Below, piece by piece: positions 40,584-63,684 of a stretch of 64,000 bases of DNA. The DNA comes from an uncultured delta proteobacterium (GTDB lineage: Bacteria; Desulfobacterota; Desulfobacteria; Desulfobacterales; Desulfosalsimonadaceae): positions 224,001-288,000 of the forward strand of contig CAWGYD010000001.1 of assembly GCA_963826785.1 (NCBI GenBank). Direction: 5' to 3'. Below the pieces are notes generated by a model. The model did not search any database, was not told where the DNA came from, and worked only from the letters and a program-made list of their open reading frames with translations. The position numbers and the translations under genes are program-made. Numbering within the stretch: position 1 is the first letter of the stretch; each line of letters begins with the position of its first letter.

Positions 40584-42294
40584 TTATTGGGGGTAATTTT
40601 GTGACTGATGCGCTTTTCCGTGGCATTTTAGAAAACATTGCCCCCGGAAGCGGCCGAGATCATTATATTCAAGCCGTCCCGTGTCATCGGGCATGACGAT
40701 GGTCCGATCAAAATTGATGAGATGGCTGTTGCGGATGGAATTTCCCTGCATGTAATTGATGCCGTGGGGATCATGACAGGCCGAACAGGGCGTCTTTTGA
40801 TCCACCACATGCGTCTTGTGCGGGAAGCTTTCATCATTCAGCAGGGTCGCCCGGCTGTGGCAAGTATAGCACAGGGCGTAGCTGGAGGGGGACTCTATCG
40901 TGTAATCATCGGTGACATACCGGTCGGTGAGCAGATGCGGCCAGTCCGATCCGTGGGGTCCCTTGGGTGCGGAGGGATCGCTGCTGCCATGACAGTCCGA
41001 GCAGGTGATGGTGCTGCTGACGGTATAGGGCGGCAGCAGGCTTAACACATCCGGGTTTTTTCCCCGGACTTCCACCGGGTGAAAGGAAGGATTGGCCGGA
41101 TCAAATTCCAGCCGGGTGTTGACCTGATCAATCTGCCGGGCAACGTTTAGCGTATCGACGACATTGTTGTCGCCGTGGCATTTGAAGCAGATTTCATATT
41201 CATAGCGGGCTTCGGGCAGCATCTGGCCGGCCCCGGACATGCCCGATGCCCCCCGGGTCGCCCCCGATACCCGGGAGCCGTCCATGGACGGATCGGCGTT
41301 TGCCTGGTGGGGATCGTGGCAGTCGCTGCATTCAACATGTTTTTGGACGCCCCCCGATGCGAAATTTTCGCCCGGATCGTGAACGCCCGTATAGGCATCC
41401 ACGGGATGCCGGTACCGCTTGGTGATGACCGACGCGATATCGGTGGCGGCCACCTTGCCGTCATGGCAGGCAAGGCAGTTGTCCTCTTCATACACGAAGC
41501 GCAGCAGCCGCTCGATTTTCTCCTGCAGAATGGGGCCGGTGGCAATTTTCACATCCGTTTTCGGCGACGGTCACGTAGTCGGTATTCGGCCAGAGCGTAC
41601 CGGACCGGTCCAGTACCGCAGGGGAGCGTGAATGGGAAGAGGCGTTCCAGCCCTTTTCGTCATGGCAGGTAATGCACAGGGATGATCCCGTATTGTCCAT
41701 CACCAGAAACTGGCCGAACGTGTCATCATGGGGGTCATGGCAGGTGATGCACTGCAGCACGCGATTATTTTCGAGCCGGATTTCCCGGGGGAGCGTGGAC
41801 GGATCCCTGATCTCCCGGTTCTCCAGGGAAAGTCCGGTATCGTAGACAAATGAAACCGGATGGTCATCGGACAGGTCCGTGCCCAGTCCCGAGGGCCGCT
41901 GCTCGGGCAGATACCGGATGCCGCCCCGAAAAGGGATCTCGGTTTCCCCCGCAGCGGTCGCGCCAAGCGCAATGGTGCCGTCGTGGCAGCTCAGGCACAT
42001 CCGGGAAGATCCGGTGGGCTGCCCCACGTCGGCGGTGAGGGTGGAACTGTAATAGGGGGTATAATGGCTTTCATTGACGCTGCGGTTCCACAGATACGGC
42101 ATGTTCGAGCCTTCCCGGTGGGGAATGTGGCAGAAAATGCATATCCTCTCTTCCGATGAAGCGGTAATGGCGCCGGGGCCGCTGATGGACAGGTTGTGCC
42201 GGGTCGCGCGTATGTTTCCGCCCAGGGCGGACGTGGATAAACAGCACAGGAACAGGGCGAGGCCCGCAAGTTTTTTGTTTTTCATCCGTTTCAT
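40584..42294 (-). CDS. Multiheme cytochrome c (11 CxxCH + 1 CxxxCH) with an N-terminal OmcE-like domain, frameshifted at about 41518
   Basis: Signal peptide, then RHNLS/CIFCHIPH/LWNR/CLSCHDG/DLSDDHPVSF/CITCHDPH/CITCH and CENCH. The second frame adds six more CxxCH and CFLKCH. Confidence 0.88.
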
Positions 42295-43328
42295 TTCAGG
42301 GCATCTTCTTTCAGGTATTTAAATACCTGGATCCGTTTATTGCTTGAATCCGACACGTAGATATAATCATTTTGATCGATGTAGATCCCGGTGGGAAGCC
42401 AGAATTCTCCGCTCCCCGAGCCGTGGTTGCCAAAGGCCATCAGCAGGCGGCCCTTCGGGTCAAACATCTGGACATTGTCGAAGAGCGCATCCACCACATA
42501 GAGATTGCCGTCGCTGTCGGCTGCCACACCCTTGGGCCTGGCAAAGGTCCCGGGCGCATCGCCCATCCGGCCAAAGGCGGTTTGAAACGCGCCTGTGCGG
42601 GAAAACACCTGGACCCGGGCATTTAGCGAGTCGGACACGATAATGTCGCCGGTGGGTGATGTGCATATGTGGGTGGGATAGTGCAGCCGGCCGTTTTGCG
42701 ACCCGCTGCCGCCAAATGATCCTTTCGGGGAAAGGGTTTTCAGGTCGTATCTGAATACCCGGGAAAGAAGCGTGTCCACCACGAGCAGTTCCGATGTCTG
42801 CTTATTGACGGCAATCCCGGTGGGCCGTTTGAACACATCGCGGCCCAGCTCCGCAACGAATGTGTCCCCGCGGTCCTTGAATATCCTGACCACGGCATCT
42901 TTCGAGTCGGTGACGTAGATCCGCCCCCCGTCATCTATGGCAATATCCACCGGGGAGGCCGGCAACGACTGTGCCGGGGAGAAGGAAGAATAGCGGTTCC
43001 CCTTTGCATCGAACACATGGACCTTCTTCAGGAAGGTATCGACAACATAAAGCCTGCCGTCGGCGTCGGATGACACGCCATAGGGGGAAACAATGGATGC
43101 CCCCGGTCTGCCGCCGATATAATCGACCAGTTTTTTAAACACCCCGGGTGCGATCCCGGCATCTTCCGGTCCGGATATGGTGTCAACAAATTCGATGCGC
43201 TTTGTCTCCGGCGGTTTCGGCCAGAAGAGATCCGCCCGCGGGCGCAGAGGTTCCGCGTGCTTGACGCATCCGGCCGCAACTGCCCATATGATCAGTGCCG
43301 CCGCGAATATAGGGATCATCCTGCGCAT
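42291..43328 (-). CDS. NHL-repeat six-bladed beta-propeller lipoprotein
   Basis: Lipobox AAGC, FWPKPPET and repeated PxGIAV/YVxD/RVQVF units. Confidence 0.9.
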   Translation of the reverse strand: MRRMIPIFAAALIIWAVAAGCVKHAEPLRPRADLFWPKPPETKRIEFVDTISGPEDAGIAPGVFKKLVDYIGGRPGASIVSPYGVSSDADGRLYVVDTFLKKVHVFDAKGNRYSSFSPAQSLPASPVDIAIDDGGRIYVTDSKDAVVRIFKDRGDTFVAELGRDVFKRPTGIAVNKQTSELLVVDTLLSRVFRYDLKTLSPKGSFGGSGSQNGRLHYPTHICTSPTGDIIVSDSLNARVQVFSRTGAFQTAFGRMGDAPGTFARPKGVAADSDGNLYVVDALFDNVQMFDPKGRLLMAFGNHGSGSGEFWLPTGIYIDQNDYIYVSDSSNKRIQVFKYLKEDALK

Positions 43329-43335: not shown

Positions 43336-45306
43336 CTACCACAGGCTCCGGGTGATGCCCAGGTAAATCCGCTGCTGCCGGTAGCTGTCCCCATTTTTCT
43401 TGTCCTCCTGATTGCCCAGCCGGTAGGAGAGGGTCCCTGTCCAGACCCCGTACGCCAGTTGGACGGTCGGGGCGATTTCCGTGTATACCATATCCTGATG
43501 GTCTCCGGAAACCCTGTCCCACAGACCCACCATGCTGAAAGTGCACCACCATCTGGGCGTCCAGCCGATGTTGGTCCCCAGGCTGTAAAAATCTTCCGAT
43601 TCATCGATGTCCGGAAAATCTCTGTTTCCGTAATCTCCGGAAAAATTGAAATAAAAATTTCGCAGGGGCCTGAAGTTGATGAGTTGGCGAACGCTCCGGG
43701 TGATGATGGAATTGCCGTTGCTCCGGTCCTGATCCTCATAGAAAAACTGGGTCTCCGTCCAGTCGGTGTCGAACCGGATGCGGACACTGTTGCGGGTATC
43801 ATCAATGGGATCATACAGCGATTCACCGGATATCACGTTCTGGTTGAGACGGCCGTGCGCCAGGGTGAGATAGAAAAACGACCACAGATCCAGATCGAAA
43901 CGGTAGTCCTGGCCGAAGCGGGCATCGTCCACCGAGGCATCGATCCGGTAGCTGTAGCGGATGAGCACCTCCTGACCGTCGGCGATGGAGCCCAGCAGGG
44001 AGCGGCTGATGCTCACATCGGGCCCGATCTCCTGGATCCGGTAATCGATATTTTCAGCGTAGACGGTGGCGCCGGTAATGCTGGTCACCAGGATGGATTG
44101 GCGCAAAATGTTTTCTTCCCGCAGCAGCGTTTCCTCACCGATTTTCAATACATGGGGCTCCTGGGTCGAAATGATGTCCTGGTCGCCGCTTCGTTGGGTG
44201 AGATCATAGGTGTACCCCGCGCCCAGCTCCACGTTTCCCCAGGGGATCGGCCGATTGTAGGTAAAGCCCAGGTTGCTGCGGTACAGGTCTTCGCTTCCGC
44301 CGGAAAAATCGGTAAATGCCGCCTCCCCGCCAAGATCCGTGGTCAGGCGGTCATACAGGCGATGGGTCAAACCGGCCCTCAGTGCGGTTTCCTCGTTTAC
44401 GAAGCTGTCGAAGTCGTTCCGGTTGTAATTGATGCTGTACCGGGTCAGCAGGCTTCTGCTGTGGGTCCAGAAAAGATTCTCCGAAGCCGACCAGATATCA
44501 CTGTCCGCATCGGCGTATTCGGCCCGGTTGTTGTAAAAAAGCGAGTCGAGTCTGACCCTGTTGTCATCCGTAAAAAAGAGGGTGTTGGTCAGTTCCGTGT
44601 TCAGGGCATTGGATGAAATATCGGTGCTGTCATACAGTGTCCGGGTGGTTCGGTCCGCGTCGTCGTAAAGCATTTCGAGCTGGGTAACGCTGTTTCCCGC
44701 ATTGTGACGGACATCGACCTGCAGTTCATTGCGATCTTCATCCCACCCGTAAAATCCGCTCTGGGAGGATTTCTGACTGCTGAATCCGATGGAGGCCGGC
44801 AGCGTGGGGTTGGTGAAATTCAGCCGGGTGCCCCAGGTTTCATTATCGAAATCCGTATCCTGGACGGTCGACAGATCGAGCCGGCGGGTGTTACGGTAGG
44901 CAAAGAAATCCATGGAGAACGGTTTGCGCTTCAGCAGCGTCGCCCGCGCGTCATAGGCCATAACCGATGTGTCCCTCCGCTCTGTATGGGATTGTTCAAA
45001 TATTTCCTGGCGCCACTCGGGCATGAAGGTAAAGCGGTATTCCATCAGGTTGGGATGATAAAGCCAGCCACCGGTGCGGATGGTTGCAGTCTCCAGAAAG
45101 TCATGGGTGGTGGTCTTTGTTTCCGCCTCCGGCGTTTTTAGCGTTTCATCCTCAAATTCATAGGAAGTGCCAAGCCCCAGCTTGGGCCGCTCCATGAAAA
45201 AAAATCCATTCTCCTGCGCATGGGCTGAAGTCGCCGCCGTCATCAGGGCGGCACATGACAGCATAAACAGGATCATATGGGTTACTCTATTGCGGGAAAA
45301 CATCAT
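43336..45306 (-). CDS. Outer-membrane beta-barrel (candidate porin of a porin-cytochrome conduit)
   Basis: Signal peptide ending AHA, no internal TM helices, many alternating Y/F/L-S/T/D/R strands and an aromatic C-terminal Trp. Flanked by cytochrome genes. Confidence 0.75.
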   Translation of the reverse strand: MMFSRNRVTHMILFMLSCAALMTAATSAHAQENGFFFMERPKLGLGTSYEFEDETLKTPEAETKTTTHDFLETATIRTGGWLYHPNLMEYRFTFMPEWRQEIFEQSHTERRDTSVMAYDARATLLKRKPFSMDFFAYRNTRRLDLSTVQDTDFDNETWGTRLNFTNPTLPASIGFSSQKSSQSGFYGWDEDRNELQVDVRHNAGNSVTQLEMLYDDADRTTRTLYDSTDISSNALNTELTNTLFFTDDNRVRLDSLFYNNRAEYADADSDIWSASENLFWTHSRSLLTRYSINYNRNDFDSFVNEETALRAGLTHRLYDRLTTDLGGEAAFTDFSGGSEDLYRSNLGFTYNRPIPWGNVELGAGYTYDLTQRSGDQDIISTQEPHVLKIGEETLLREENILRQSILVTSITGATVYAENIDYRIQEIGPDVSISRSLLGSIADGQEVLIRYSYRIDASVDDARFGQDYRFDLDLWSFFYLTLAHGRLNQNVISGESLYDPIDDTRNSVRIRFDTDWTETQFFYEDQDRSNGNSIITRSVRQLINFRPLRNFYFNFSGDYGNRDFPDIDESEDFYSLGTNIGWTPRWWCTFSMVGLWDRVSGDHQDMVYTEIAPTVQLAYGVWTGTLSYRLGNQEDKKNGDSYRQQRIYLGITRSLW

Positions 45307-45380: not shown

Positions 45381-46121
45381 CTACTCAGTCTTTTTGCAAT
45401 CCACGGGGGACAAATTTTCACCACTCGGGTCCGGCTTCAAAAAAGCCGTATGTTTTTCTTCCATGTAGTCTTTCTTCAACATAAACCGGTCTTTCCCCAG
45501 GTGGACATTGTGGCACGACAGGCACGGTTTGGGTTGATCTGCATCCTTGATGCATTTTGCAGCGCCGATTTTATTGCCTTCATTGTGGCAGCTGACGCAC
45601 AAGCGGTCCGGATCGTCATTGAGCCGAAAAGGGTACCGGCTCTGATGGGCCGCGTGGCACGCCAGGCATTTTCCCTCGGCTGAAAGCTTTTGCAGATACA
45701 GCCCCCTTTGGATCGCCCACTCGGGGGACAGGTCCTTGTGACAGGTTTGGCAGAGCTTTTGGGCCGGGGCCACCAGGGGGCCCGGCTTTCCCCCGCCGCT
45801 TCTGAAAATGCCGTCCCAGCTGTTCCCGAAAATGGGGGTGGAAAAGGCGGAGGCCCCTTCATGGCAGGCCGCGCATTTTCTTCCGATATAAGGTTTGTGA
45901 GAAACCAGGGGGCGCTCGAGCACCCCGGCGTCGGCGGTCTGCACGACCGTAGATGCCGGGGTTTGGGCTTCCAGGGGCTTGGGTTTTTCGGCGGAAATTT
46001 CCTCTTCAGGAAACAGGAAGCGAAAGGCCGCACTTTCAGGATGCTTCTGGCACCCTGGCGTCAGAAACATCAAGACGCCCGTAAAAACAGCGAGGGCAAA
46101 AATGCTTATCTGCTTATCCAT
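45381..46121 (-). CDS. Pentaheme cytochrome c lipoprotein
   Basis: Lipobox-like TPGC. Motifs CAACH, CQTCH, CLACH, CVSCH and CLSCH. Confidence 0.85.
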   Translation of the reverse strand: MDKQISIFALAVFTGVLMFLTPGCQKHPESAAFRFLFPEEEISAEKPKPLEAQTPASTVVQTADAGVLERPLVSHKPYIGRKCAACHEGASAFSTPIFGNSWDGIFRSGGGKPGPLVAPAQKLCQTCHKDLSPEWAIQRGLYLQKLSAEGKCLACHAAHQSRYPFRLNDDPDRLCVSCHNEGNKIGAAKCIKDADQPKPCLSCHNVHLGKDRFMLKKDYMEEKHTAFLKPDPSGENLSPVDCKKTE

Positions 46122-46194: not shown

Positions 46195-47271
46195 TCACCG
46201 CCCTATGCTCTGGTTTTCCGGGAGCGTATCGCCGACCCATTTTCCGAATCCATAGACATTGAGTTTGCTGGATCCGAACATGCTGGTGACATAAACGAGG
46301 TACTCGATTTTAAAATTCGGGGAGGCAAATTTGGAAAAATAGCCGACATTGGCGTAATCGATGGCGATGCCGGCAGGAAGATACAGGCTGCCCGGGGCGC
46401 TGCCGGAGCCGCCGAAAAAGAGCAGCAGCCGGCTCTGATCATCAAAGATCTGCACGTTCTCAAAGGCGGCATCCACCGCATAGAGATTGTTCGCTTTATC
46501 CACCGCCAGCCCTTTGGGCCGCGCAAAACCGCCGATCTGGTCGCCGTGGAACCCGATGGTCCGGCGCAGATCACCGTCGGGGGAGAGCACCTTGACACGG
46601 AAGTTGAAGGCGTCGTTGACAAAGACCTCGCCGCCCGGCCCCACGGTGAGGTGGGAGGGTTTGAAAAAATCCCCTTTTTTCCCCACGGCCCTGATCAGGC
46701 CGCCGGTGTCCTTATCCAGGATGAACAGCTGCTCTTTATCGATATCGATCACATACACCCGGTTTCCATGCACCGCCACATCCACCGGCTTTTCAAATAT
46801 CTCCGCATTGCCGTAGGCCCTCAGAAATTCGTTGTTCCGGTTAAAGACCACCACCTGTTTTCGCTGCATGTCCGCAACGTATTTGAGGTCGTCATCTGAA
46901 ATCCAGATGCCGGAAGGATTGCCCAGGCTTCCCATTCCGCTGTCATCGATGAAGGAAAGGGTCTGATCCGCCAGATCAAGCACCACGATTTTTCGGTAGA
47001 CCCGGTCCAGGACGTAAATTTTGCCCTTTGAAGACCCCACATCATAGGGCCGCCCCAGTTTTTCATTGTCGGGTTTGCCCAGGATGAACTCCTGAAGGGC
47101 ACTTTGCTTTTTGCCCAGGTCGTGGGCGTCCGTTATGGAATGGAGAAACTGCAGCCGCGGTTCCTGGGGCAGCGGCGGGTAGTATATAGGATTTTGATGC
47201 ATCCCCTCCCTGGGCACGGAGGCGCACCCGATGAAGACGATAAACAGTGAAAACAGGAAGATCTTTTTCAT
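46195..47271 (-). CDS. NHL-repeat beta-propeller lipoprotein
   Basis: Lipobox FIGC, YYPPLPQEPRLQFL, FARPKGLAVD and ENVQIFD. Confidence 0.9.
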   Translation of the reverse strand: MKKIFLFSLFIVFIGCASVPREGMHQNPIYYPPLPQEPRLQFLHSITDAHDLGKKQSALQEFILGKPDNEKLGRPYDVGSSKGKIYVLDRVYRKIVVLDLADQTLSFIDDSGMGSLGNPSGIWISDDDLKYVADMQRKQVVVFNRNNEFLRAYGNAEIFEKPVDVAVHGNRVYVIDIDKEQLFILDKDTGGLIRAVGKKGDFFKPSHLTVGPGGEVFVNDAFNFRVKVLSPDGDLRRTIGFHGDQIGGFARPKGLAVDKANNLYAVDAAFENVQIFDDQSRLLLFFGGSGSAPGSLYLPAGIAIDYANVGYFSKFASPNFKIEYLVYVTSMFGSSKLNVYGFGKWVGDTLPENQSIGR

Positions 47272-47288: not shown

Positions 47289-47948
47289 TTATTTGTCGTG
47301 ACAGGTCAGGCAAAGGGCCGACCCTGTATTGTCCTTGATCAGCAGTTTGGTTCCCGGGACCGCCCGGGTGTTGTGAACGTCATGGCAGGATGAACATTCC
47401 ATCCGGCTTTGAAAAAGCATATCGTCATGAATGGTCCCGCTGCTGCCGACCAGGCCCGAAAGCTTGGCCAGCGGGTCGTAAAGCTCACCGTCCTGGGTGG
47501 CCAGAGAGGTGTCATAAACAAATGAAATGGGATGATCATTGCTCAGGTCGGTGCCGATCAGGACATCTCCGAACAGATAAACGGTCCCGTTTCGGATATC
47601 GCCGAAATTTTCCAGGGCCACGGTCCCGTCATGGCAGGAGAGGCAGATTTTGGAAAGCCCGTCCGGCTGACTGCTGACATTCGCATCCATGGTGGGGGAG
47701 CGGGTGCTGTTATACATGGTGTAGACCTCCGTGGACAGTTCATGATTCCACAGCGGGGCCGGAAGGGGTTTGGTGTGATGGGGCGTGTGGCAGGGCTTGC
47801 AGATTTCCCCGCTTTCGTTCCACAGATACCCGCGAAAGTCATGGGCGGATCCGACGATGGTCCCCGCCAGTGCGACAGACGAACAGACGAGCAGCAGAGA
47901 CAGTATGGCCGCCGGTATTTTTCTCTTCATCTTCAACTTTATCCGCAT
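47289..47948 (-). CDS. Tetraheme cytochrome c, OmcE-like (candidate nanowire subunit)
   Basis: AGAGGA RBS and a signal peptide ending ALA. Motifs AHDF, CKPCHTPH, PLWNH, CLSCHDG, GTDLSNDHPISF, CSSCHDVH and GSALCLTCHDK. Confidence 0.85.
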   Translation of the reverse strand: MRIKLKMKRKIPAAILSLLLVCSSVALAGTIVGSAHDFRGYLWNESGEICKPCHTPHHTKPLPAPLWNHELSTEVYTMYNSTRSPTMDANVSSQPDGLSKICLSCHDGTVALENFGDIRNGTVYLFGDVLIGTDLSNDHPISFVYDTSLATQDGELYDPLAKLSGLVGSSGTIHDDMLFQSRMECSSCHDVHNTRAVPGTKLLIKDNTGSALCLTCHDK

Positions 47949-48099
47949 GTTTGATCCTCTATGATTATTGTTCGTTTCCATCAACTTTGCTGGTGAATGC
48001 TTTATCTTCGTTCCTGGCGGAAAAATGAGATTTTAGTGCAAGACAGGCCAAAAAAAGGCAATCCCGGGCTAAAAGATGCGTTTTTCGCCTATGCACGAT

Positions 48100-49053
48100 T
48101 TACATTTGGTGACATTCCTTGCACAGGTTTTCCGGCAGCCGATGCCGGTATTTGCTGTCCGCCCCCTTGGCCCCGGGCCGATCCTCCGGGATGACCCCTT
48201 TCTGGTGGGGGTTGTGGCAGGTGATGCAGGTCATCTCGCCCTTTTCATCCAATGGGAGCCTGACCTGATATTTTTCCTCCATGTGTTGAATCCGCTTCAT
48301 TCCATCCGGGGAGGGCTTGATGCCCATGTGATCGGCATTTCCGGAATGGTTCCCGGCAATCCGGTGGCACCGGCGGCACATGGTTTCGATATTGCCGATG
48401 AACTTGACGTCCTTGAAGGTCGCATGCTTTTCGTCGGGTTTCTCTTCGTGGCAGATCAGGCAGTTTTGAATGATGATCTCGCCGTTCTCATCGATCTGGT
48501 GATGGGGGTCGAGCTTCTGGTAGTTTTGTTCGGCATGGCATTTATAGCAAAAATCCGTCCGCCTGGGATAAGGGGCGCCGCGCAGGGAATTGCGGTCAAA
48601 CAGCCGCTTTTCGCACTGCAGGAAAACGTTGTGGCAGGTGTTGCAGGTGAGCCGTCCCTCCTGCAGCGGAAAATCGGCCGGCATCCGTTTTTTCTTTTCG
48701 GGCGACGGCGCGATGTCGAAGGGGTGGATGTACTCGGCCGGGGCTTCGGCATGACAGCGGCATAACCGTCCATAATCGGCCTCGAACTTGAGCCAGGGCT
48801 GTCCGCTCCCCTTGACGGGCGTGGTTTCATGGCATTCGCTGCAATATTGTCCGGTGTAATGGATATTGGTGGCGGCCGTGACGCCTTCGTTTACAAACGT
48901 GAAGTCAGGGGCAAAGCGGGGCGCTTCTGCCGCCGCCGTCTCCGGCGATGGGCCAACGTCCGCATCTTCATGATAACTTTGCGTCGAAACGGATTGGCAG
49001 GACACCATCATCAGGCAGAAGGCCAGGGTGATGAGGCGCGTTCTCTTGAACAT
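48100..49053 (-). CDS. Multiheme cytochrome c lipoprotein (7 CxxCH + 1 CxCH; the start could be 49101)
   Basis: Lipobox-like MVSC. Motifs CSECH, CRCH, CNTCH, CYKCH, CLICH, CRRCH, CITCH and CKECH. Confidence 0.85.
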   Translation of the reverse strand: MFKRTRLITLAFCLMMVSCQSVSTQSYHEDADVGPSPETAAAEAPRFAPDFTFVNEGVTAATNIHYTGQYCSECHETTPVKGSGQPWLKFEADYGRLCRCHAEAPAEYIHPFDIAPSPEKKKRMPADFPLQEGRLTCNTCHNVFLQCEKRLFDRNSLRGAPYPRRTDFCYKCHAEQNYQKLDPHHQIDENGEIIIQNCLICHEEKPDEKHATFKDVKFIGNIETMCRRCHRIAGNHSGNADHMGIKPSPDGMKRIQHMEEKYQVRLPLDEKGEMTCITCHNPHQKGVIPEDRPGAKGADSKYRHRLPENLCKECHQM

Positions 49054-49075
49054 GCCCAGGAGACGGCATCTGTGG

Positions 49076-51593
49076 TTATGCAAATACGCTTTTTCTGTCA
49101 TCGGCTGCGTTGGTCGTCGGCTTGTGAAAATATTTGAATTTATACAGCGCCTCGACCCCGTGGCAATCCTTGCACACCCGGTCGGCCAGGTGGGGCCTCA
49201 GGAAACTGTTGACGGCATCGCCTTCTGCGGGAAGGGCTTGCGCCGGCCCTCCCGTGGAATTTGCGGTCCAGCGATGCGCATCGTGGCACGTCGGGCACGA
49301 AATATTGCCCGCCTTTACGTGTTTAGCCGTGTTCTTGTCAAATAAGGGGAACACGGGCGGCATCCGTTTGACCCGATGTCCACGGGTTGACCACGATGGT
49401 GTCGGGATGGGGGATACCTGGGGGACTTTTCTGGCTGCCGCACCCGTTTTGGAATGGCAGGAATTGCACATCCGGTCCATCATATTTTCCCCTTCCCCCA
49501 GGTCCCGGGCCCACAGCTTGATCCCCACCGTGCCGTTATGGACGAGGTGGCACGCACCGCATACCCCGGATTCAAATGGGGTTCTGCCGGCGGCATTCCT
49601 GGCCTCGGGCGCGGTTTCGATCAGGTTGTGATCCGTCTTCTGGACTTCGGCCTGATCCTTGTGGCAGCCGATGCACAAATCAGGCGGATGGGCTGATCCG
49701 GCGGCGCAGAAACCGGGTCACCGGCCGTCCGTCAACAGATACTAAATCGCCGTCTTTTCGGGTGACGGGAGACCCGCGATGGGGATCATGGCAGGTGTGG
49801 CAGGTCATGATCCCGTTTTCCAGCAGGCGGCCGTCTTCATCAAAGAGCGGCAGTCCCGTTTGGGCCATGCCTTCCGGAAGGCGGACATTGACCGGGTGCG
49901 AGTTTTTCTCAATGGCCATCTTGGGCGCAAGCCCGTCCTTTTCATGGCAGCCGGTACATCCGTCGTTTACGAGTTCGCCCGATGCCGTGGCCGTTTTTCG
50001 GCGCCAGATAAATCCGTCCGGCCCGGCGGCATGGATGCGGTGGCAATTCCGGCACAGGTCCGATTCGGAAACGTTTTGCCGCAAAATCGGGCTGCCCTCC
50101 GGAAAAACGCGGCCAAGGTCATGCCGGGTATTTTCGATAGCAAATTTTTCCGCATGGCACGTTTGGCAGATCTCCGGCGACGGCTTTCGCAGCAAAGGAT
50201 TTTTGGGGGCAGATTCCCCGTTTGCCGTCGCCGGGGGTGCCTGCTGGATTCCGGTGCCGCCGCCATGGGCGTCATGGCAGGTGGCGCAGGTCATTTTGCC
50301 CTGGGGGTCGACCACCCCGAGCGCATTGAACAGGGGCAGATCGATTACCTTTTTTTCCATGGCCACCGGGGGTTGCAGCCCGCCTCCGGTGCTGTCCGCC
50401 GGTTCAGGAAGGCCCATGCCCACCGGATGGGTGTAGCCGGCAAGATTTTTGTTTTCGGCAAACTTTCCCCTGGCGTGGCAGCTCAGGCACATGGCCGTGG
50501 TCCGATCGGCTCCGTCCGGGTTTTCATAGGGCGTTCGGGCCGCCTTGTGCGGCAGGTGGCAGGCGGAGCATGCGCCGGATTCTGCAACGGTTTTTCCTTC
50601 CAGGTTCTTTTGCGTCCTGGCCGAGAGCGCCAGGTTGTGGCGGGTCTTTTCCAGGCGCTGTTTGTCCGGATGGCAGGTCAGGCACAGACTTGATTTGAAA
50701 TTTTCTTCAATCAGCAGCGCCGCTTGTTTTTTAATCGGGTTGTTATGGATCTTATGGCAGGTCTGACAGGTCAGCATGCCTTCATATCCCAGTTTTGCCC
50801 CTTTTTTTTGCAGCGCATCCGGTATGACCGCTTTTCCGGGTTTGACGTTGATGACGTGGCCGGCGTTTCGCTTGCCTGAATCGGTGAACATGTTCTTGTC
50901 CGTGTGACACTCCAGGCAAAGGCCGCTGTCGCCGGCCCCCTTCACCAGGTACCCCTCGCTTTTCGCGCCATGGGCGGTATGGCAGGTTTCACAGATGACC
51001 TGATTTTTTTGACTCCCCTCGTGGGCGCCGCGCATCTTCAGGTTCTGCGGAATCTTTTTTTCGCTTTTGGAAAGGGAGTGATTGCCCGCATCCGTGCCGC
51101 CGTCTTTATCGGGGTGGCACTTTTTGCACATGGCCGAATCAATGTTCGACATGCGCAGAAAAATGGTTTCCTTCACCCCGGGCCCGCTCTCCACACCATG
51201 GGCGGTGTGGCAGGTGGCGCACTGAATTTTTCCGTTTTCATCCAGGGGAAAACCCTCCGGTATGATCATGCCCGCCGGCGGTTTCACCCCGGTTTTGTGC
51301 GCCTTGCCGTACATCACCCGGTCCCGGGAATCCACCACGCTGCCGTCATGGCAGGACATGCACATTTCCGGGTCCGCGGCCACCTTTTCCGACTGATATG
51401 GGACCAGGTCGGTTCCTCTTCCTTCCACAAAGAAGGTATCGATCCACCGGTAGTGGCATATGGCGCATCCTTTTGCCGAATTCGGGTTCTTGGGCGGCTC
51501 CACGGTGGCCGCAAACAGGCTGCCGGCCAGTATCTGAAACATGAATAGAAAATGGATATACAAGATGCGTCGGCGACGCCGGTTTCGTATCAT
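49076..51593 (-). CDS. Large multiheme cytochrome c (20 CxxCH), frameshifted at about 49688
   Basis: Signal peptide. 15 CxxCH in 49680-51593 and 5 in 49076-49678. The junction reads SPS/PDLCIGCH, matching internal repeats. Confidence 0.88.
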
Positions 51594-52591
51594 TTGCCTG
51601 CTTCAATCCGGTAGACGCTGACTTTCTGCGCTGCCATTTCGACCACGTACAAGCGATTGTGATCGTCAATGTATATGCCCGTCGGCGTCTTGAATCGTTG
51701 AATCGCCTCACCGGCGCCATCTCCGAGAACACCCCGGAATTCCCCCCAGGTGTCGAATACCTGGATCACGCCCATGTAGCTGTCGCTCACGTAAATCCGG
51801 TTGGCCGTATCCACGGCAACACCCTTGGGCCGGAAGAATTGGCCTTTTTCAACGCCCCAGCCGCCGATGGCGGTGACAAACAGGCCGTCGGGATTGATCA
51901 CCTGCACGCGCGTGTTGATGACGTCGACGATGTAGACGTATTGTTCCTGGTTGAGGGCGATGAAAAAAGGATACCTGAACATCAGGTCCTGTTCTCCAGG
52001 CTCTCCCACGGTGTTGGTGAGTTTCAGGGTGGAAAGGTCGTAGACCAGAAAATGGTGGTGATCGTTGTCCACCACGTACAGCCGGTTTCGGGACTCATCG
52101 ACTGCGACATCGGTGGGGTCCGCCGGCCTGCCGTTTTTGGGGGAAAGCGTGATCATGGCGGTAAAAACATGATTCTTGTCAAAAATCTGCACCCGGTGGT
52201 TGCCCGAGTCGGCAATGTAGATGTTTCCGGCATTGTCCACGTCGATGCCGAGCGGATAGCGAAACTGCCCCTTGCCGTCTCCGGGTTCCCCAAAGGCGGT
52301 GAGCGCCTTTCCGTCAGGTTTGAATACCTTGATTTTGCTGTTTACGCCGTCGACGACATAGATTTTACCGTCCTTTGACACCGCCACATCGCTGGGTTCT
52401 TTAAAATCGCAGGTGATGGCAAACTCAAAATCGATATTGACGATCTCCACGGCCAATGCGGGTCGTGCCGGCACAGCAGCGAAAAACAGCAGTTGCAAAA
52501 CGACTGAAATGCCGAAGGTTAAAAAGCTCCGACCTTTTTTGATCCATGTCACCAGGTCGAATTGAAGGTGATGCGTATCGGTTTTCTGCAT
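51590..52591 (-). CDS. NHL-repeat beta-propeller, secreted
   Basis: Motifs PSDVAV, FRYPLGIDVD, NHRVQIFD and FFRPKGVAVD. ATGA overlap with the 20-heme gene. Confidence 0.9.
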   Translation of the reverse strand: MQKTDTHHLQFDLVTWIKKGRSFLTFGISVVLQLLFFAAVPARPALAVEIVNIDFEFAITCDFKEPSDVAVSKDGKIYVVDGVNSKIKVFKPDGKALTAFGEPGDGKGQFRYPLGIDVDNAGNIYIADSGNHRVQIFDKNHVFTAMITLSPKNGRPADPTDVAVDESRNRLYVVDNDHHHFLVYDLSTLKLTNTVGEPGEQDLMFRYPFFIALNQEQYVYIVDVINTRVQVINPDGLFVTAIGGWGVEKGQFFRPKGVAVDTANRIYVSDSYMGVIQVFDTWGEFRGVLGDGAGEAIQRFKTPTGIYIDDHNRLYVVEMAAQKVSVYRIEAGK

Positions 52592-52615
52592 GTTGATCCG
52601 GGGTGTAATTCTGAT

Positions 52616-53557
52616 TTAATCCACTGGTGAAAGCAGGTGCGGCAAGTAAAAGACCTTGTATTTGGTCACGAGCCCCTTGATGTTCAATGATTTGAGATCA
52701 TGGGCCCTTTTTTCTGAAAAGCCGAGCTGATGAAAATCGAGGATGCTGTCTTTTGAATGGCACTCCCCGCAGGTAACGCTGATTTCACTCTTGTGGATAT
52801 CCTGATGGAAGCCGCTCAATCGCTTTTTCTTTTCATCGGCGCTCAGCGTCTTTTCTTCTGCCGTGTATGCCTTTGCCTTATCGGTATCCCAGGTGTTTAC
52901 CAGTGATTTTCGCCTGCCGTTCTCATTTGAAAAAACACAGATGCGCGAAATGAAATGAGAAGATTTGGCGTCATTTCCGATTTTCGGGTTAAACCGCGCT
53001 CCAAAAGGCTCTCCCGCAAATTCGGCGGTTTCCGAGCTGGTCCAGTCATACTGAAGCGATTGAAATTTTTCCCTGTTGATGTGGCAGGTTTCACAGGTCA
53101 TAAACCCAATGTGCATGTTGATGAATGCCCTTGCCAGCTCATTGCTCTGGTGCGGGTACAGGCGGTGGCATTCCCGGCAGGAAGAGCCGTCCGCCAGTTG
53201 GGTGATATATGATTTTTCTTTATCATGGATCGTCTTTAAATCAAAATCGGCGATGCGCTTTTTGTCTTTTTCCGCCAGGTGGCACCCATTGGTGCAGTTG
53301 ACCGCTGTCTGCCCGGCATGGGGAACCTTTGTCACCGTCGTGTGGCATTTTACGCAGTCTGTCTTGCCGTGGGGCGACTGACGGTATCGGTTTTCATCAA
53401 TGTGGAACACCTTGAATCCCGCCGGATCCTCCGGCCGGACCAGCCCGGGGTACTGGTGGCAGGTGAGACATCCGCTTTCATCCATGGCAAAGCTGTTTTT
53501 GACACCGGGCATCAGCATCAGCATCGATATCAACGCAGTGAAAAGATATTTGGTCAT
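52616..53557 (-). CDS. Periplasmic multiheme cytochrome c (5 CxxCH + 1 CxxxCH)
   Basis: Signal peptide. Motifs CLTCH, CVKCH, CTNGCH, CRECH, CETCH and CGECH. Confidence 0.88.
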   Translation of the reverse strand: MTKYLFTALISMLMLMPGVKNSFAMDESGCLTCHQYPGLVRPEDPAGFKVFHIDENRYRQSPHGKTDCVKCHTTVTKVPHAGQTAVNCTNGCHLAEKDKKRIADFDLKTIHDKEKSYITQLADGSSCRECHRLYPHQSNELARAFINMHIGFMTCETCHINREKFQSLQYDWTSSETAEFAGEPFGARFNPKIGNDAKSSHFISRICVFSNENGRRKSLVNTWDTDKAKAYTAEEKTLSADEKKKRLSGFHQDIHKSEISVTCGECHSKDSILDFHQLGFSEKRAHDLKSLNIKGLVTKYKVFYLPHLLSPVD

Positions 53558-53580
53558 GTGAATTCCTTCATACCGGCAAA

Positions 53581-54432
53581 TCAGTCCTTGCTGAAATCGA
53601 GCACCGACGGCAGGTAGAACGTTTTGTACTTATCGATCATGCCGACAAATTCGCTCGAAACCAGGTGCTCCACCCGCCTTTCGGGGAACCCGAGCTTTTT
53701 GAAATCGAGATAACCGTTCTTCTGGTGGCAATCCGCGCAGAATACCGGTTTTTTGGAAAGCGGTCCGTGAAGCTTGGCTTTGGCTTCGGCCACCTGGTCA
53801 GATGTCAGGTCAGGCCGCATTTTCAGAAACTGCTGGGCCGCCTCCGTCTTGATCGGTGTAAATATCCGCGAAGGACCCTGTTTAGTGAACTTGATGGGAT
53901 AAATTTTGGCGGGGTATTTGCCGTATTCCCCTTTTACGGTATTTTCAATTTCTCCGGTCTTTCGGTCCACCCACAAAAAATCGATTTTCTCCTTCTGGGA
54001 TCCGTCCAACTCCGTCCCGGCGTTTTCATCCTGGCGGGCGTGGCATACGGCACAGGCGATAAAACCGGTGTGCAGGTTCAGCAGGGCGCGGACCTTTTTC
54101 TCCTTGCCGTGGGGATAAGTCCCGTGGCAAACCACGCAAATCGGCGGATTGGGCTCCTGGTGGTCCACATACTGGTCGATCATGTGGAAATGTTCCCGGG
54201 GTGTCGATTCGCTTTTATGGGTGACGAGCTTGAGCATATCCGCATCGCCATTGTATTTTGAAAGAACGACCGATGCATTCAAGCCAAAGCCGGGAAAATA
54301 GACGACACTGATCAGCCATAGCCCGAAGATAAAAAAGGGAAGGAGATAGACGACCTTCAGGAAAAACAGAAGAATGCCCCTGACCCTGTGAAAGGCGCTG
54401 CCCAAAAGAGAAGATCCTTTTTTTTCAATCAT
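53581..54432 (-). CDS. Membrane-anchored triheme cytochrome c (paralog 3)
   Basis: N-terminal TM, HFHM, then CVVCH, CAVCH and CADCH. Confidence 0.85.
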   Translation of the reverse strand: MIEKKGSSLLGSAFHRVRGILLFFLKVVYLLPFFIFGLWLISVVYFPGFGLNASVVLSKYNGDADMLKLVTHKSESTPREHFHMIDQYVDHQEPNPPICVVCHGTYPHGKEKKVRALLNLHTGFIACAVCHARQDENAGTELDGSQKEKIDFLWVDRKTGEIENTVKGEYGKYPAKIYPIKFTKQGPSRIFTPIKTEAAQQFLKMRPDLTSDQVAEAKAKLHGPLSKKPVFCADCHQKNGYLDFKKLGFPERRVEHLVSSEFVGMIDKYKTFYLPSVLDFSKD

Positions 54433-55184
54433 TTTGTTTCCGATCCCTCCCGCAGGTAAATTTTCTGGAGCTCCGGGTCGCTCATGATTTTGTCATAATG
54501 AAGGCGGTACTCTTCTTTCATTTCTTCCTCATCGATGAGTCCGGTCAGCCACATGTTGTCAATGGGAAACTTGTGCGGCCGCAGGTGAATCTCATATAAA
54601 TGCCAGACCATCACCGCCAGGCAGGCCAGTATGGCTTCCATCCCGTGCACCAGGGAAGCGATGTCGACGAAAAATTTGTCCCAGGCGGATTCAGACCATA
54701 ACATCAGGCCGGTAACAGACATCAACGTGGTGCCGACAATCAGGGCCATGTATTCCGCTTTGTGCTTGTAGGAGAACCGGTCAAATGCCGGCGGCTGATC
54801 TTTAAACCCGATCAGGTACGCCATATTGTGTAAAAATTCTTTCATATCGCGCGGCCGGGGCATCATGTCCTTGAACCAGCGCCGTCCGGCCGGCTTGAAG
54901 ATCAGATAATAGATGTGGTAGGTGCTCACGATGATCATGAGGGTGCCGAAGACGCGGTGCACCACCCCCCGGGCAATAAAAACGGGCTCCTTTGCGCTTC
55001 CGAGAAAGTGAAACGCCTGCTCGGGGAGCCAGACCATGAAACCGGTGAAGGCCAGCATGAAAAAGCAGACCACAAATATCAGGTGCTGTACTTTTTCGCT
55101 GGAATTCAGCCGGACAAAATACCGGGAAACGCCGGAAGGCTTATTCTCCCATTGGATATCGCTGTGACTAATGTTGCGGGTCAT
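54429..55184 (-). CDS. Cytochrome b subunit (FdnI/CbcB-like), paralog 3
   Basis: Four TM helices with His in QHLIF, VHRVFG, LVHGMEA and WHLYEIH. Also FDRFSYKHKAEY. Confidence 0.88.
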   Translation of the reverse strand: MTRNISHSDIQWENKPSGVSRYFVRLNSSEKVQHLIFVVCFFMLAFTGFMVWLPEQAFHFLGSAKEPVFIARGVVHRVFGTLMIIVSTYHIYYLIFKPAGRRWFKDMMPRPRDMKEFLHNMAYLIGFKDQPPAFDRFSYKHKAEYMALIVGTTLMSVTGLMLWSESAWDKFFVDIASLVHGMEAILACLAVMVWHLYEIHLRPHKFPIDNMWLTGLIDEEEMKEEYRLHYDKIMSDPELQKIYLREGSETK

Positions 55185-56370
55185 GCATCGCCTCTTTTTT
55201 CATTTTCTTGCGGGCGCGCCGGAAATCCAGCAGCTGGTGGACAAACATGAAGCCGATCACCGCCGCAATGAGTATCTGGTATACCATTTTGATCATCGAC
55301 AGGACCTTGTAATGGAATACCTCTTTTTCTGAAATTTCCTTGCGGGCCCGAACCAGGATGAGCGGTTCCTCCGCAGCTTCCTCGACCTGTATCGCCTCCT
55401 GGCTGGCCATGAGCTGGACCTTGGTCCCGTAGGCATGGACCCGGCCTTCGGCGAAGTTTGCCGTCGCACCGGGATGACAGTTCTGGATGCCCCCCTGGTT
55501 GCTGCATGTTCTGACCCGGTTTTCTTTGTGGATGGGTGAAACAGTGTCGGTTCGGGGCTGGATCTCGTGAGTGGTGTACCCCACCGGTACATGGCAGGTG
55601 ATGCAGTCGGGCGCGTTTTTGACGTCGTATTTCACCAGCGCCCAGTGAAACGTGTCCTTGAAGGTCGATACCGCCTCAAGCCCATGCCGTTTCATCTTCT
55701 GCTCATCTTCGTGGCAGCTGGTGCATAAGCGTATGATTTCGTTCTGATCTCTTCGCCGTCGCATGCGATGGGTGAAATGGGCGTAAATGGTTTGGGTCCA
55801 TTCTTTATCCGTATGGCAGCCCTGGCAGCGGGCCAGCGTTTCCATGGACAATTCCTCGCTTTTGCCCCAGAACCCGGCATAGGGGTTATACGACCGGTTG
55901 CCGTGGCAATAGGTGCATGTGGGCCGGTCCTCGGGAAACTGCTTTTCGCCGTCTGCGCCTTGTCCGTGAACGCTGTGCTGATACTTTTCCACCATGTTCT
56001 TGTGGGAAAATTCCCGGTTGGAGGAGGGGTCCTTGATATGGCACTGGGTGGAGCAATCGACTTTTTTCACCTCTTCATGCGGGATTTTATCCAGATCCGT
56101 GTGACAGCTTTTGCATTTGAGCTTTCCGTGAACGGAATGGGCAAACAGCTGGTCATTGATGTAATAGACCCTTTTCGTCCCGTTTTCGTCATAGCGCCCC
56201 AGGCCGGGGTATCGATGGCAGATCAGGCAGTTCTCCTGATCCGAGGCCGCATCGGACTGGGTAAGACCCGGTGCGGCAAAGAAGATGACGATGACAGCCG
56301 ATAGCACCGCCATTTCAAAGATCCGGCGGGTCTTGAATCCTGCCGATTTCCTTTTGCTGCCTTGCCTCAT
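55168..56370 (-). CDS. Multiheme cytochrome c with a C-terminal TM anchor (6 CxxCH + CxxxCH + CX8CH; start uncertain)
   Basis: Motifs CLICH, CKSCH, CSTQCH, CTYCH, CQGCH, CTSCH, CITCH and CSNQGGIQNCH. C-terminal hydrophobic helix followed by LDFRR. Confidence 0.88.
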   Translation of the reverse strand: MRQGSKRKSAGFKTRRIFEMAVLSAVIVIFFAAPGLTQSDAASDQENCLICHRYPGLGRYDENGTKRVYYINDQLFAHSVHGKLKCKSCHTDLDKIPHEEVKKVDCSTQCHIKDPSSNREFSHKNMVEKYQHSVHGQGADGEKQFPEDRPTCTYCHGNRSYNPYAGFWGKSEELSMETLARCQGCHTDKEWTQTIYAHFTHRMRRRRDQNEIIRLCTSCHEDEQKMKRHGLEAVSTFKDTFHWALVKYDVKNAPDCITCHVPVGYTTHEIQPRTDTVSPIHKENRVRTCSNQGGIQNCHPGATANFAEGRVHAYGTKVQLMASQEAIQVEEAAEEPLILVRARKEISEKEVFHYKVLSMIKMVYQILIAAVIGFMFVHQLLDFRRARKKMKKEAMHDPQH

Positions 56371-56428
56371 AGAACCTGACTTTCGTTTTAAACCATTTGG
56401 GGGATGCATGATGTTGATTTCGCCGAAC

Positions 56429-57313
56429 CTATTTTCCCGTAATACCGGCCGCCTCATCTTCGCTCATCCCGGGATGCAGCATCCGCGGGACGTGGAATTT
56501 GGTATAGTCCCTGATCATTCCGACAACTTCCGTGCTGACCAGCATATCGGTCCTTTTTTTGGAATAGCCCAGGGCTTCGAAGGGCAGCAGCGGGTCCTGT
56601 TTGCGGTGGCAGTCCTCACAGAGATACGGCTTTTCGTTGATGAATTTGTGAATGATCTTCTTGGCCTTGGACTTCTGGCGCTCGGACAGGGTTTTTTCCG
56701 TTTTCTGGTATTCTTTTGCAAATTCGATCCGGTCCGGGTTGTCCATCCGTTGGATTTTGCCATCGACCCGTTCAAAAGGGATGATTTTCGCGTGGTATCT
56801 TCCCGGGGCCACGCCTTCCTTGATGGGGCTTTCGATGATCTGACCGGTTTTTCGGTCGTACCATTTAAAGACGCCGGTTTTCTGGTCGCCCTCCAGCCGG
56901 ACATGGCATGTCTCGCAGGAGATGAAAGCCGAATGCATATTCCCGAAGGCCCGTATTTCCTTCTTTTCGTCATGGGGGATATCGCCGTGGCACTCCACGC
57001 AGGATGAACGGTTATCGGGGGCCATGTCATAATCGATGTGATGGAAATGACCCTTGATCTTCATCTCCTCCAGAACCCGGTACCCCAGGTAGTGCTTCAC
57101 CTTGTCATCGCTTTCCAGGATGATCTTTTTAAAGGACTGGGCCTCTTTTTTTTCTTCGAGCCGGGCCGTCAGTGAATCGGTCTGATCGAGCACTTCCCGC
57201 TCATGGTATTCTTCGAAAAGATGACCGAAAGTGATATTCCAGATCACGACCATGAAGAACACGGTCATGGCCATGAACGCCAGTATGTACACTTTGAATA
57301 AAAAATTTTTCAT
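56429..57313 (-). CDS. Membrane-anchored triheme cytochrome c (paralog 2)
   Basis: N-terminal TM, HFHH, then CVECH, CETCH and CEDCH. Confidence 0.85.
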   Translation of the reverse strand: MKNFLFKVYILAFMAMTVFFMVVIWNITFGHLFEEYHEREVLDQTDSLTARLEEKKEAQSFKKIILESDDKVKHYLGYRVLEEMKIKGHFHHIDYDMAPDNRSSCVECHGDIPHDEKKEIRAFGNMHSAFISCETCHVRLEGDQKTGVFKWYDRKTGQIIESPIKEGVAPGRYHAKIIPFERVDGKIQRMDNPDRIEFAKEYQKTEKTLSERQKSKAKKIIHKFINEKPYLCEDCHRKQDPLLPFEALGYSKKRTDMLVSTEVVGMIRDYTKFHVPRMLHPGMSEDEAAGITGK

Positions 57314-57328
57314 TAAATGCCCCTGTTT

Positions 57329-58150
57329 CTAATTTTCAAGGGGGGGTGCTGCAGGAGCCCCATGCGGAGGACGTATTTCATCTTCAAACCCCTCCCGTTT
57401 CATGACTTCGACATAGTATTCATAATGTTCTTCCACCATCAGCTCCTCGGAAAGGTACCCGGTCAGAAAGACGGTTCCCATGGGGAAGACGGACATTGAA
57501 AAATGGACGTTGTACCAGTGCCACAAAAACAGGAACAGGGCGGCCAGAAGCGCCTCGTCGCTGTGGGCGATCAGCGCAAAACTGATGACCTCGCCGGGCA
57601 GGATCTTCGTTGCCAGTTCCTGTCCCCACATGATGATGCCCGAAGACCCGATGATGACAATCCCCCAGAAGGGGGCCCAGTAATCGAATTTTTCCTTCCA
57701 GTTGAACTGGGTCCCCATGGGCCGCTGGTCGGTCAAAAACAACAGATATTTCAACAGGGCGAATATATCCCTGGCATCCTTCAGGCTGGGGATCAGCGGC
57801 TGCCGCAGAACGGCCTTGATCATCGAAACCGGACCCAGTTTCCCGCTTTTCTTCAAGGGCACAATCTCGCCGGTATAGAACACGTACGCCAGGTACCCGA
57901 TGTGATAGGTGAACAGAAGCAGCAGGGTGACCCCGGCAAACCGATGAATGATCGGCGCCAGGTGGATCCCGCCGAACAGGCTGTAGAGATGCGGCGCCCA
58001 GAAGGTATCATGAAACTTGAGCGGCATGCCGGTCAAAACGAGCGTGATCACACAAGAGGCCAGAATGATATGCTGCAGCCGTTGATTGACGGTAAACCGG
58101 AAAAAGTATTTCCTGCCGTCCTTGATTTTGATGACGTATTTCTTCTCCAC
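57329..58150 (-). CDS. Cytochrome b subunit (FdnI/CbcB-like), paralog 2
   Basis: GTG start. Motifs RLQHII, IHRFAG, KEKFDYWA, IAHSDEA and WHWYNVH. Confidence 0.88.
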   Translation of the reverse strand: MEKKYVIKIKDGRKYFFRFTVNQRLQHIILASCVITLVLTGMPLKFHDTFWAPHLYSLFGGIHLAPIIHRFAGVTLLLLFTYHIGYLAYVFYTGEIVPLKKSGKLGPVSMIKAVLRQPLIPSLKDARDIFALLKYLLFLTDQRPMGTQFNWKEKFDYWAPFWGIVIIGSSGIIMWGQELATKILPGEVISFALIAHSDEALLAALFLFLWHWYNVHFSMSVFPMGTVFLTGYLSEELMVEEHYEYYVEVMKREGFEDEIRPPHGAPAAPPLEN

Positions 58151-58153
58151 GGC

Positions 58154-59206: not shown

Positions 59207-59274
59207 TTTGAGAATCTGCTTGCCCTCCTCGTTTAGATGATCCGACCCATCGCGCCATGCGCTCCAAAAGCCTT

Positions 59275-62800: not shown

Positions 62801-63684
62801 CGTCCGTCCTGATCCTGATTCTGGTTCTGGTCCTGTGCGTTGGATCCCATTTGATCCGATTGCTTGAACAAGTCGGGGAGATAGAATTCATCGTACTTGG
62901 TGATCATCCCCTTGATGCTCAGGTTTTCCAGATCGGTGATCCGTTTTTGGGAAAACCCCAGTTTCGTAAAATCGAGGATGCTCTTTGATGAATGGCAGGT
63001 CTGGCATTCCGGCCCCTTGGGGCGGATGTCCACGTGAAATTTTTTGGTGATCCCCCCCCGCTGTTCGGGGGTGAGCTGATCCCGGATCTTTACATAGTCC
63101 TTTGCCAGTTCCGCCTTCTGCATGTGCAGGGTGGGGGAAAGATTTGCGCCGTTTTGGTAAAAGGGGGCGATTTTTGAAAGATGATCCACCGCACGCTTCA
63201 ACTCCCCGGTTTCAGGGTCGTAGGCGGTACCGAAAAAGGGGCCTTCCGGGTGCTCCTGGATCGGTGAATACCATTTGTATACAATGGTTTCGCCTTCCTT
63301 GACGTCTAAATGGCATGTCTCACAGGCGAAGAAATTGGTGTGCATGTTCAGCATGGCCCGGATCTTCTTGGTTTTGCCGTGGGGCAGCTTGGAATGACAG
63401 ATGAAGCAAGTCGGTTGGAGCGCTTCCGGAGCCTCCGGCAGATCGGCAAAGTGATGAAAGTGCCGGTGCTCCTCCATTTTCTTTTGCTGTTTGAATTCTT
63501 TGAGGATCGGTGATTCCTTTTCCTGGAATTTTTCCACCAGCGGGATCAAAAGCCCGGGCCCGTGGCTGGAAAAGGCAAGGTGGTTGACCACGCCGCCCAG
63601 CACGAAGAGGACCATGAACCACACGAAAAACCCGATCAGGTAAACCGGCCAGGGATGTTCCTGCCGTTTGGGGTCTCTATCCAT
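62797..63684 (-). CDS. Membrane-anchored triheme cytochrome c (paralog 1)
   Basis: GGGGAGG RBS before ATG 63684. N-terminal TM, HRHFHH, then CFICH, CETCH and CQTCH. Confidence 0.85.
   Translation of the reverse strand: MDRDPKRQEHPWPVYLIGFFVWFMVLFVLGGVVNHLAFSSHGPGLLIPLVEKFQEKESPILKEFKQQKKMEEHRHFHHFADLPEAPEALQPTCFICHSKLPHGKTKKIRAMLNMHTNFFACETCHLDVKEGETIVYKWYSPIQEHPEGPFFGTAYDPETGELKRAVDHLSKIAPFYQNGANLSPTLHMQKAELAKDYVKIRDQLTPEQRGGITKKFHVDIRPKGPECQTCHSSKSILDFTKLGFSQKRITDLENLSIKGMITKYDEFYLPDLFKQSDQMGSNAQDQNQNQDQDGR

Follow-up and report, generated by a model that had tools for sequence, protein, structure and literature searches.

A probable OmcE-type filament subunit encoded beside an OmcE-headed 12-haem cytochrome in a sulfate-reducing member of the Desulfobacterales

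We report a tetrahaem cytochrome gene from an uncultured bacterium of the Desulfobacterales, located in a 64,000-nucleotide stretch of one contig (hereafter the window); its product is probably the unit that repeats along an OmcE-type cytochrome filament. With this subunit a family already described gains a member. The earlier note had implied that its occurrence outside Geobacteraceae would be new; this was already known, as the OmcE filament of Desulfuromonas soudanensis has been solved (9YUQ) and homologues with a barrel and a propeller gene nearby are reported from five phyla (PMC13712944, mBio 2026, cited throughout from the sections available to us). The cassette around the gene includes a candidate end-piece for the filament, and in the literature searched, mostly without subscription journals, we found no description of this variant. 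It is possible, if still doubtful, that it represents a second, widespread OmcE nanowire system which encodes its own end-piece, in which the head of a 12-haem protein would cap the terminal subunit at its open haem 4 and the rest of that protein would prolong the haem chain by eight more haems, inward to the barrel as anchor and terminator or outwards as a tip that makes contact.

Results

The tetrahaem subunit belongs to the OmcE family

The gene occupies exactly the positions assigned to it in the earlier note and is read from the minus strand, running from 47948 to 47289, a point left unstated there; the plus-strand frame of 47289..47948 is broken by stops (Table 1). Its product answers to the secreted four-haem protein of about 220 aa that had been described, with four CxxCH motifs starting at residues 50, 102, 185 and 213 and a leader that, judged by eye and from hydropathy, appears to be a Sec-type signal peptide ending ALA at 28. 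All seven motifs named at the outset occur in the order claimed, namely HDF (36), CKPCHTPH (50), PLWN (65), CLSCHDG (102), GTDLSNDHP (132), CSSCHDVH (185) and GSALCLTCH (209), and even two CxxCH motifs arise in just 9 of 100,000 shuffles of the protein. The ribosome-binding site is as clear as was stated, and the next gene is indeed an NHL lipoprotein gene, which starts 17 nt after the subunit stop. A gap of about 150 bp to the upstream gene was likewise found (151 nt, 47949-48099), whereas the separate expression it was thought to allow drew no support from scans for promoters and terminators: the stretch 47100-48300 yielded not one sigma-70-like promoter, where chance alone would give 0.7, and around the subunit gene no minus-strand terminator was detected, so that separate expression is possible but unsupported.

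Table 1. Features of the cassette and of the adjoining cytochrome island (positions in the window)
Feature	Position	Strand	Remarks
Ribosome-binding site GAGGA	47955..47959	-	6 nt before ATG of subunit gene
OmcE-family tetrahaem subunit gene	47289..47948	-	one open frame, 219 aa
NHL beta-propeller lipoprotein 1	46195..47271	-	358 aa, lipobox-like FIGC
5-haem paired-CXXCH cytochrome, probable lipoprotein	45381..46121	-	246 aa
Probable outer-membrane beta-barrel	43336..45306	-	656 aa; fold predicted from sequence pattern
NHL beta-propeller lipoprotein 2	42291..43328	-	~345 aa, start codon uncertain
OmcE-headed 12-haem cytochrome	40584..42285	-	11 CxxCH + 1 CxxxCH; split by frame break near 41510
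Upstream part of cytochrome island	48100..64000	-	continues to ~66600, past window end

Full-length similarity, distal histidines, fold, C-terminus and gene context all agree with the OmcE assignment that had been proposed, and the subunit is a member of that family. A phmmer search against all PDB sequences returned only two significant chains, both matched over their full length: OmcE of Geobacter sulfurreducens (GSU0618; 7TFS, residues 10-219 aligned to 6-232, E 8e-22) and OmcE of D. soudanensis WTL (DSOUD_2954; 9YUQ, residues 15-219, E 7e-19). A profile built from 137 relatives reached 2.7e-49 and 3.3e-46 with the solved chains 7TFS and 9YUQ, and OmcS came next at 3e-10, through short, motif-sized stretches only. 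The alignment to both proteins that the earlier note had suggested thus extends along the whole of OmcE, beyond the CxxCH motifs, and stays at motif level in OmcS; low similarity outside CxxCH and missing distal histidines, which it had named as grounds for doubt, were not seen. Membership of the OmcS family was rejected, as OmcS carries six haems on ~430 aa, the subunit has four haems on 219 aa, and the match is confined to motifs.

Four distal (non-CxxCH) histidines of the subunit, at residues 36, 57, 139 and 192, align with histidines in 7TFS and 9YUQ. Across the 137 diverse relatives H36, H139 and H192 are each present in 137/137 and H57 in 131/137; among 104 close homologues H57 is kept in 92. 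The remaining 12 (P0033, P0066, P0072, P0081, P0096, P0102, P0103, P0106, P0112, P0113, P0115 and P0119) carry Q, R or K in its place and retain the other seven ligands; such variants could be non-donating forms, for example caps for the haem-1 end. Four haem motifs are found in 133 of the 137 relatives, and the chain ends two residues past the last CxxCH in 131 (within three residues in 135), as it does past haem 4 in the window's subunit.

An AF2 model of the mature chain, built with a diverse alignment, had a pLDDT of 93.7; a model from the full precursor and the 104 close homologues reached 43.9 and was not used. Foldseek matched the former to 7TFS with E 2e-10 and TM 0.63, and structural alignment gave a VIA Z of 14.3 with an rmsd of 2.8 Å over 170 residues, the runner-up among the 4 chains aligned having a Z of 2.4. 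Compared with G. sulfurreducens OmcE, the subunit has the same length, CxxCH spacing, four distal histidines, C-terminus and fold, shares the PLWN, CxSCHDG and GTDLSNDHP blocks and is likewise encoded near an NHL lipoprotein and a barrel. In contrast, structural identity is ~31-35%, the lineage and the cassette are separate, and the host is a sulfate reducer. To D. soudanensis OmcE the match is also full length, with the same ligand set.

A cassette with a candidate barrel lies within a large cytochrome island

The cassette genes follow one another on the same strand in the order subunit, NHL lipoprotein, 5-haem cytochrome, probable barrel, NHL lipoprotein and 12-haem cytochrome. The 656-aa protein has a signal peptide, 14 alternating amphipathic 9-mers and a terminal Trp; it gave no match in Pfam or NCBIfam, and its neighbours in the Atlas were unnamed clusters at 0.99, the best named one being Porin_4 (33% of members, 0.89), which we take as a lead only. 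A barrel plus a propeller nearby is the criterion by which PMC13712944 recognizes likely nanowires, and the window cassette has both, with two NHL lipoproteins and a barrel predicted from its sequence pattern. The minimal cluster of D. soudanensis, as described there, matches the window's inventory of two multihaem cytochromes, two propeller lipoproteins, subunit and barrel; it differs in that the window's operon contains the OmcE-headed 12-haem gene, whereas the anchor candidate of D. soudanensis lies elsewhere in the genome. The same logic, likened here by description, is seen in the OmcS/OetABI clusters of ANME-partner sulfate reducers (Desulfobacterota) and of Geobacter, where a porin-cytochrome conduit is encoded next to what may be a filament cytochrome (Murali et al. 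2023, PMC10553843); that paper names OmcX, OmcS-like and Apc2a proteins, and the term OmcE is absent from the text available to us.

A lipoprotein gene closes the operon (39732-40566, minus strand); it is frame-broken here and whole (292 aa) in locus L010, and neither of its two pieces matched Pfam. Converging on this end of the island is a gene for a GAF and sigma-54 activator (38099-39682, plus strand), a possible regulator.

Upstream of the subunit the island encodes 7-haem and long multihaem cytochromes, two further NHL proteins and three paralogous tandem modules (53581-59206 and 62797 to ~65800, minus strand), each consisting of a 6-haem cytochrome, a cytochrome b561-like membrane protein and a 3-haem cytochrome; the copies are 27-40% identical to each other. 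With nine c-haems and a b-type domain, a module may be likened to a split quinol oxidoreductase of the CbcL type, and this upstream part is probably the inner-membrane and periplasmic arm of the system. The whole island contains 104 CxxCH motifs. Its GC content of 0.51-0.59 does not differ from that of the flanks, giving no sign of recent transfer. Elsewhere on the host contig, a ResB/CcsA-like haem maturation pair was recognized by eye at 216554-222097, just before the window and ~40 kb away, beside a 5-haem cytochrome and a molybdopterin-type subunit (Qrc/Act-like, also by eye), and a second small multihaem lipoprotein-like group (9, 2 and 6 CxxCH) lies at 304529-309434, 16 kb past the window end.

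Frame breaks interrupt the 12-haem gene in the assembly, and at least two more genes of the island. Within the island, 20 kb contained 3 frame switches (1.5 per 10 kb), against 14 in 161 kb outside it (0.87 per 10 kb), the latter from 139 ORFs aligned to 20 regions of one relative, where overlapping frames double-count a few. The breaks are most likely assembly errors, because their frequency is comparable to the genome-wide rate. The subunit's own frame is unbroken, and its nearest named relatives, at 80-84% identity, come from Desulfobacteraceae, Desulfobacterales and Desulfococcus; the top two loci are syntenic over 20 kb.

The 12-haem protein carries an OmcE-like head that docks on the subunit in a model

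Copies of the 12-haem protein in relatives are ~570 aa long and carry 11 CxxCH, followed at the end by one CxxxCH. Over the first 210 residues the protein matches 7TFS (8e-27) and 9YUQ (2e-21), and its tail has no match among PDB sequences at E 0.01. The four distal histidines of OmcE type and the next two histidines after haem 4 are invariant in 49/49 copies. According to PMC13712944, an anchor needs an OmcE-like body and a ninth histidine, and the sole candidate described lies outside the cluster; the paper further states that OmcE operons contain no candidate for the tip, and it calls filament termination and the tip open questions. We found no published OmcE-headed anchor or tip in a search that mostly excluded subscription journals and yielded PMC13712944 as the only relevant paper.

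For a model of the complex, the mature subunit was paired with the window's own 12-haem head (residues 23-253), and four haems were included. The pair gave an ipSAE of 0.65 (runs 0.65, 0.65 and 0.71), the best of three controls 0.00, with a contact agreement of at least 94% and a partner pLDDT of at least 83; the mark applied to complexes was reached by 116/157 solved and 2/215 mismatched pairs, counts that apply only roughly here. The model was of a hetero-pair, was built from custom alignments and contained 4 of 9 haems. In the modelled interface the C-terminal, haem-4 end of the subunit (precursor residues 207-219 and 137-139) faces the haem-1 region of the partner (46-65). Partner H56, the equivalent of subunit H57, is among the best modelled contacts, and the geometry is what a polymer needs. 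The histidine of HDF is absent from the named interface contacts, which is not evidence against its contact. The docking may reflect memory of 7TFS, and we read the model as showing that the 12-haem head can take the place of a subunit in the known geometry, a weaker statement than binding of the pair.

In an alignment with OmcS, the histidine three places after the first CxxCH corresponds to residue 16, and His16 of OmcS is presumably its inter-subunit ligand. By this analogy and from the model, the inter-subunit ligand here is more likely to be H57, in the xxH that follows the first CxxCH, than the HDF histidine, which the earlier note seems to have had in view as its N-terminal His ligand. 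Because it docked head-to-tail on the haem-4 end of the subunit, the 12-haem protein is a candidate anchor or tip of the filament, a role to which we would give almost, though not quite, an even chance.

The cassette is accessory in its order and occurs widely beyond it

The host is a dissimilatory sulfate reducer, since dsrA, dsrD and aprA are present in its genome, all above cut-offs; to our knowledge, Geobacteraceae lack dsrAB. The cassette is accessory, being found in 4/41 relatives and in 9/201 genomes of the host's order, its own included. All nine carriers also encode an OmcE-headed long cytochrome, which in eight lies within about 7 kb of the subunit on the same contig. A sequence search recovered 3,841 relatives of the subunit at 90% clustering and, within a set of 50% representatives, 3,007 with E no higher than 1e-10, the named ones including Desulfobacterales, Acidobacteriota, Verrucomicrobiota, Pseudomonadota, Nitrospirota and others, so that the subunit alone would be ordinary, one among thousands of homologues.

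We fetched 80 loci by similarity to the subunit and kept the 65 in which the short subunit was matched, dropping 15 in which a fragment or the long protein had been hit; since selection was by similarity to the subunit, this set is biased to the window's cassette type, and the order-wide search is less so. An NHL gene follows the subunit directly in 53/59 loci with enough flank. Where 7.5 kb downstream could be read (44 loci), an intact OmcE-headed cytochrome with nine or more haems was present in 36, a barrel match in 32, and OmcE-headed cytochrome, NHL protein and barrel together in 27; several of the 8 loci without the intact cytochrome are cut by the locus edge or have it split.

Variants of the subunit itself were also observed. 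Five CxxCH motifs occur in some of the subunit paralogues carried in tandem by L040, L021, L022 and L031, which fits the 5-haem OmcE-like group proposed in PMC13712944. P0121 (1400 aa) and P0122 (965 aa) hold four and three OmcE-like stretches in one chain and are possibly covalent versions of the filament.

The window's subunit falls outside the Geobacter-type lineage

Searching 81 genomes from the class Desulfuromonadia, we hand-picked 18 regions, which comprised 8 of type A, 6 of type B, arranged like the window's cassette, 2 with head and tail as adjacent separate genes and 2 with other arrangements. Type A has the order 9/10-haem cytochrome, 8-haem cytochrome, NHL protein, subunit and a barrel of 740-800 aa, and none of its eight regions contained an OmcE-headed long cytochrome in the 20 kb that were read. 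Such an order agrees with gsu0615-0616-0617-omcE of G. sulfurreducens, as far as it is described in the accessible part of PMC1829397, and 7TFS is closely matched by the single type-A subunit that was compared with it (6e-62). In some type-B cassettes the subunit occurs as two to four tandem paralogues (L040, L046, L057, L065; G215, G249, G270).

In a quick, unrooted tree of 77 rows, type A subunits, type B subunits and heads each formed one group (SH-aLRT 96, 93 and 96), and the window's subunit fell in the type B group, not in type A. Assignment of the cassette to the Geobacter-type cluster, which is syntenic with purHDE-ffh, was therefore rejected: its subunit is of type B, its barrel has 656 aa, and its cytochromes are one with 5 haems and one with 12 haems and an OmcE-like head. 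Against 9YUQ, the type-A protein tested scored better (6e-32) than both type-B proteins compared (2e-27 and 7e-19). Judged from sequence, neither 7TFS nor 9YUQ is a close relative of the window's subunit (E 8e-22 and 7e-19). Because its lineage and cassette are distinct from the solved Geobacter type, that the subunit forms filaments is something we infer.

Further arrangements were seen in the class. In L118:7959-9834 and L127:8195-10147 an OmcE-like head and a 7-haem tail are adjacent separate genes behind an NHL gene, a split pair common to many genomes of Desulfuromonadia. In a third context (L081:3150-9724 and L126:9760-18985) an OmcE-like tetrahaem protein is flanked on one side by a large NHL protein and on the other by a giant cytochrome of 1911 aa and of 2792 aa with 58 CxxCH, respectively; both tetrahaem proteins group with the heads in the tree.

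Discussion

We propose that the subunit is exported by Sec and then loaded with four c-type haems. Homologues are published to polymerise head-to-tail, one haem being closed by a histidine of the neighbour; in the same way, eight ligand histidines would serve the four haems here, one haem staying open in the monomer until the next subunit supplies its ligand. The model and the OmcS analogy suggest that H57 would reach haem 4 of the neighbour, and head-to-tail stacking would then give an insulated chain of haems. From the gene context and a published porin hypothesis, the filament may leave through the adjacent barrel, aided by the two NHL lipoproteins. The 12-haem protein would join the haem-4 end through its OmcE-like head, and its own haem 4 would be closed in cis by a further invariant histidine, so that the polymer would end there. 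Were this protein to leave the cell first, it would form the tip of a filament growing at its base; were it added last, it would serve as an anchor, and its eight further haems could then pass through the barrel. Connection of the wire to the quinone pool would fall to the 5-haem lipoprotein together with the upstream cytochrome b and multihaem modules. Electrons could be drawn from a partner, a mineral or metal, or discharged to Fe(III); electron uptake has been proposed for the OmcS-like and OmcX filaments of ANME partners (PMC10553843, available sections).

The modelled docking would fit a defined hetero-complex equally well, and we have therefore considered a conduit of fixed length, in which one or a few subunits, in or on the barrel, are docked to the 12-haem protein and to the 5-haem lipoprotein; this would give a wire of porin and cytochromes comparable to MtrAB or OetABI, and no filament of micrometre length. 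The constant company of the 12-haem partner in all nine carriers among the 201 genomes agrees with such a conduit, as does the failure of our scans to reveal a terminator or separate promoter that would yield a large excess of subunit. Yet the subunit keeps both a donor and an acceptor end, ending two residues past haem 4 as 131 of 137 relatives do, and both solved homologues polymerise, which makes the conduit an unlikely alternative to the filament. That the protein is instead a monomeric periplasmic tetrahaem carrier, or that the cassette is decaying and no longer works here, is very improbable. The frame breaks in the 12-haem gene and at least two others might suggest decay, but frame switches occur genome-wide and are explained by assembly indels, and we rejected decay on this ground and because the subunit is intact and has close relatives; a monomer would moreover have one haem left open if the OmcE ligation pattern holds.

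The subunit might also polymerise into a filament that serves mainly as a biofilm scaffold, cell tether or electron store. Bundles of D. soudanensis OmcE have been proposed to tether cells (PMC13712944), and one study found Fe(III) oxide reduction and current unimpaired by omcE deletion in G. sulfurreducens, whose OmcE filaments were obtained from mutants only (PMC11077965, accessible part); for these reasons a role in long-range conduction is disputed even for that protein, and a review, so far as its text was available, reads the Fe(III) oxide data the opposite way. However, the purified D. soudanensis bundles conduct, the loops by which they form are not conserved among homologues (PMC13712944), and an island of 104 CxxCH motifs with three cytochrome b modules points to a wired respiratory role, so that we hold a mainly structural or storage filament to be quite improbable. 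The preferred reading remains an OmcE-type filament wired to respiration.

For this family, the cassette supplies a co-encoded candidate for the filament end, a question left open by PMC13712944 in the sections available to us, and the 12-haem candidate has a ligand pattern suited to an end-piece and is kept across many phyla. If the proposal is true, it would answer how OmcE-type wires start or stop and how they join the cell, and the host would be a free-living sulfate reducer with a complete path from quinone to nanowire. The cassette also marks its carriers, 9 of 201 genomes of the host's order, as likely exchangers of electrons with minerals, metal or partner cells.
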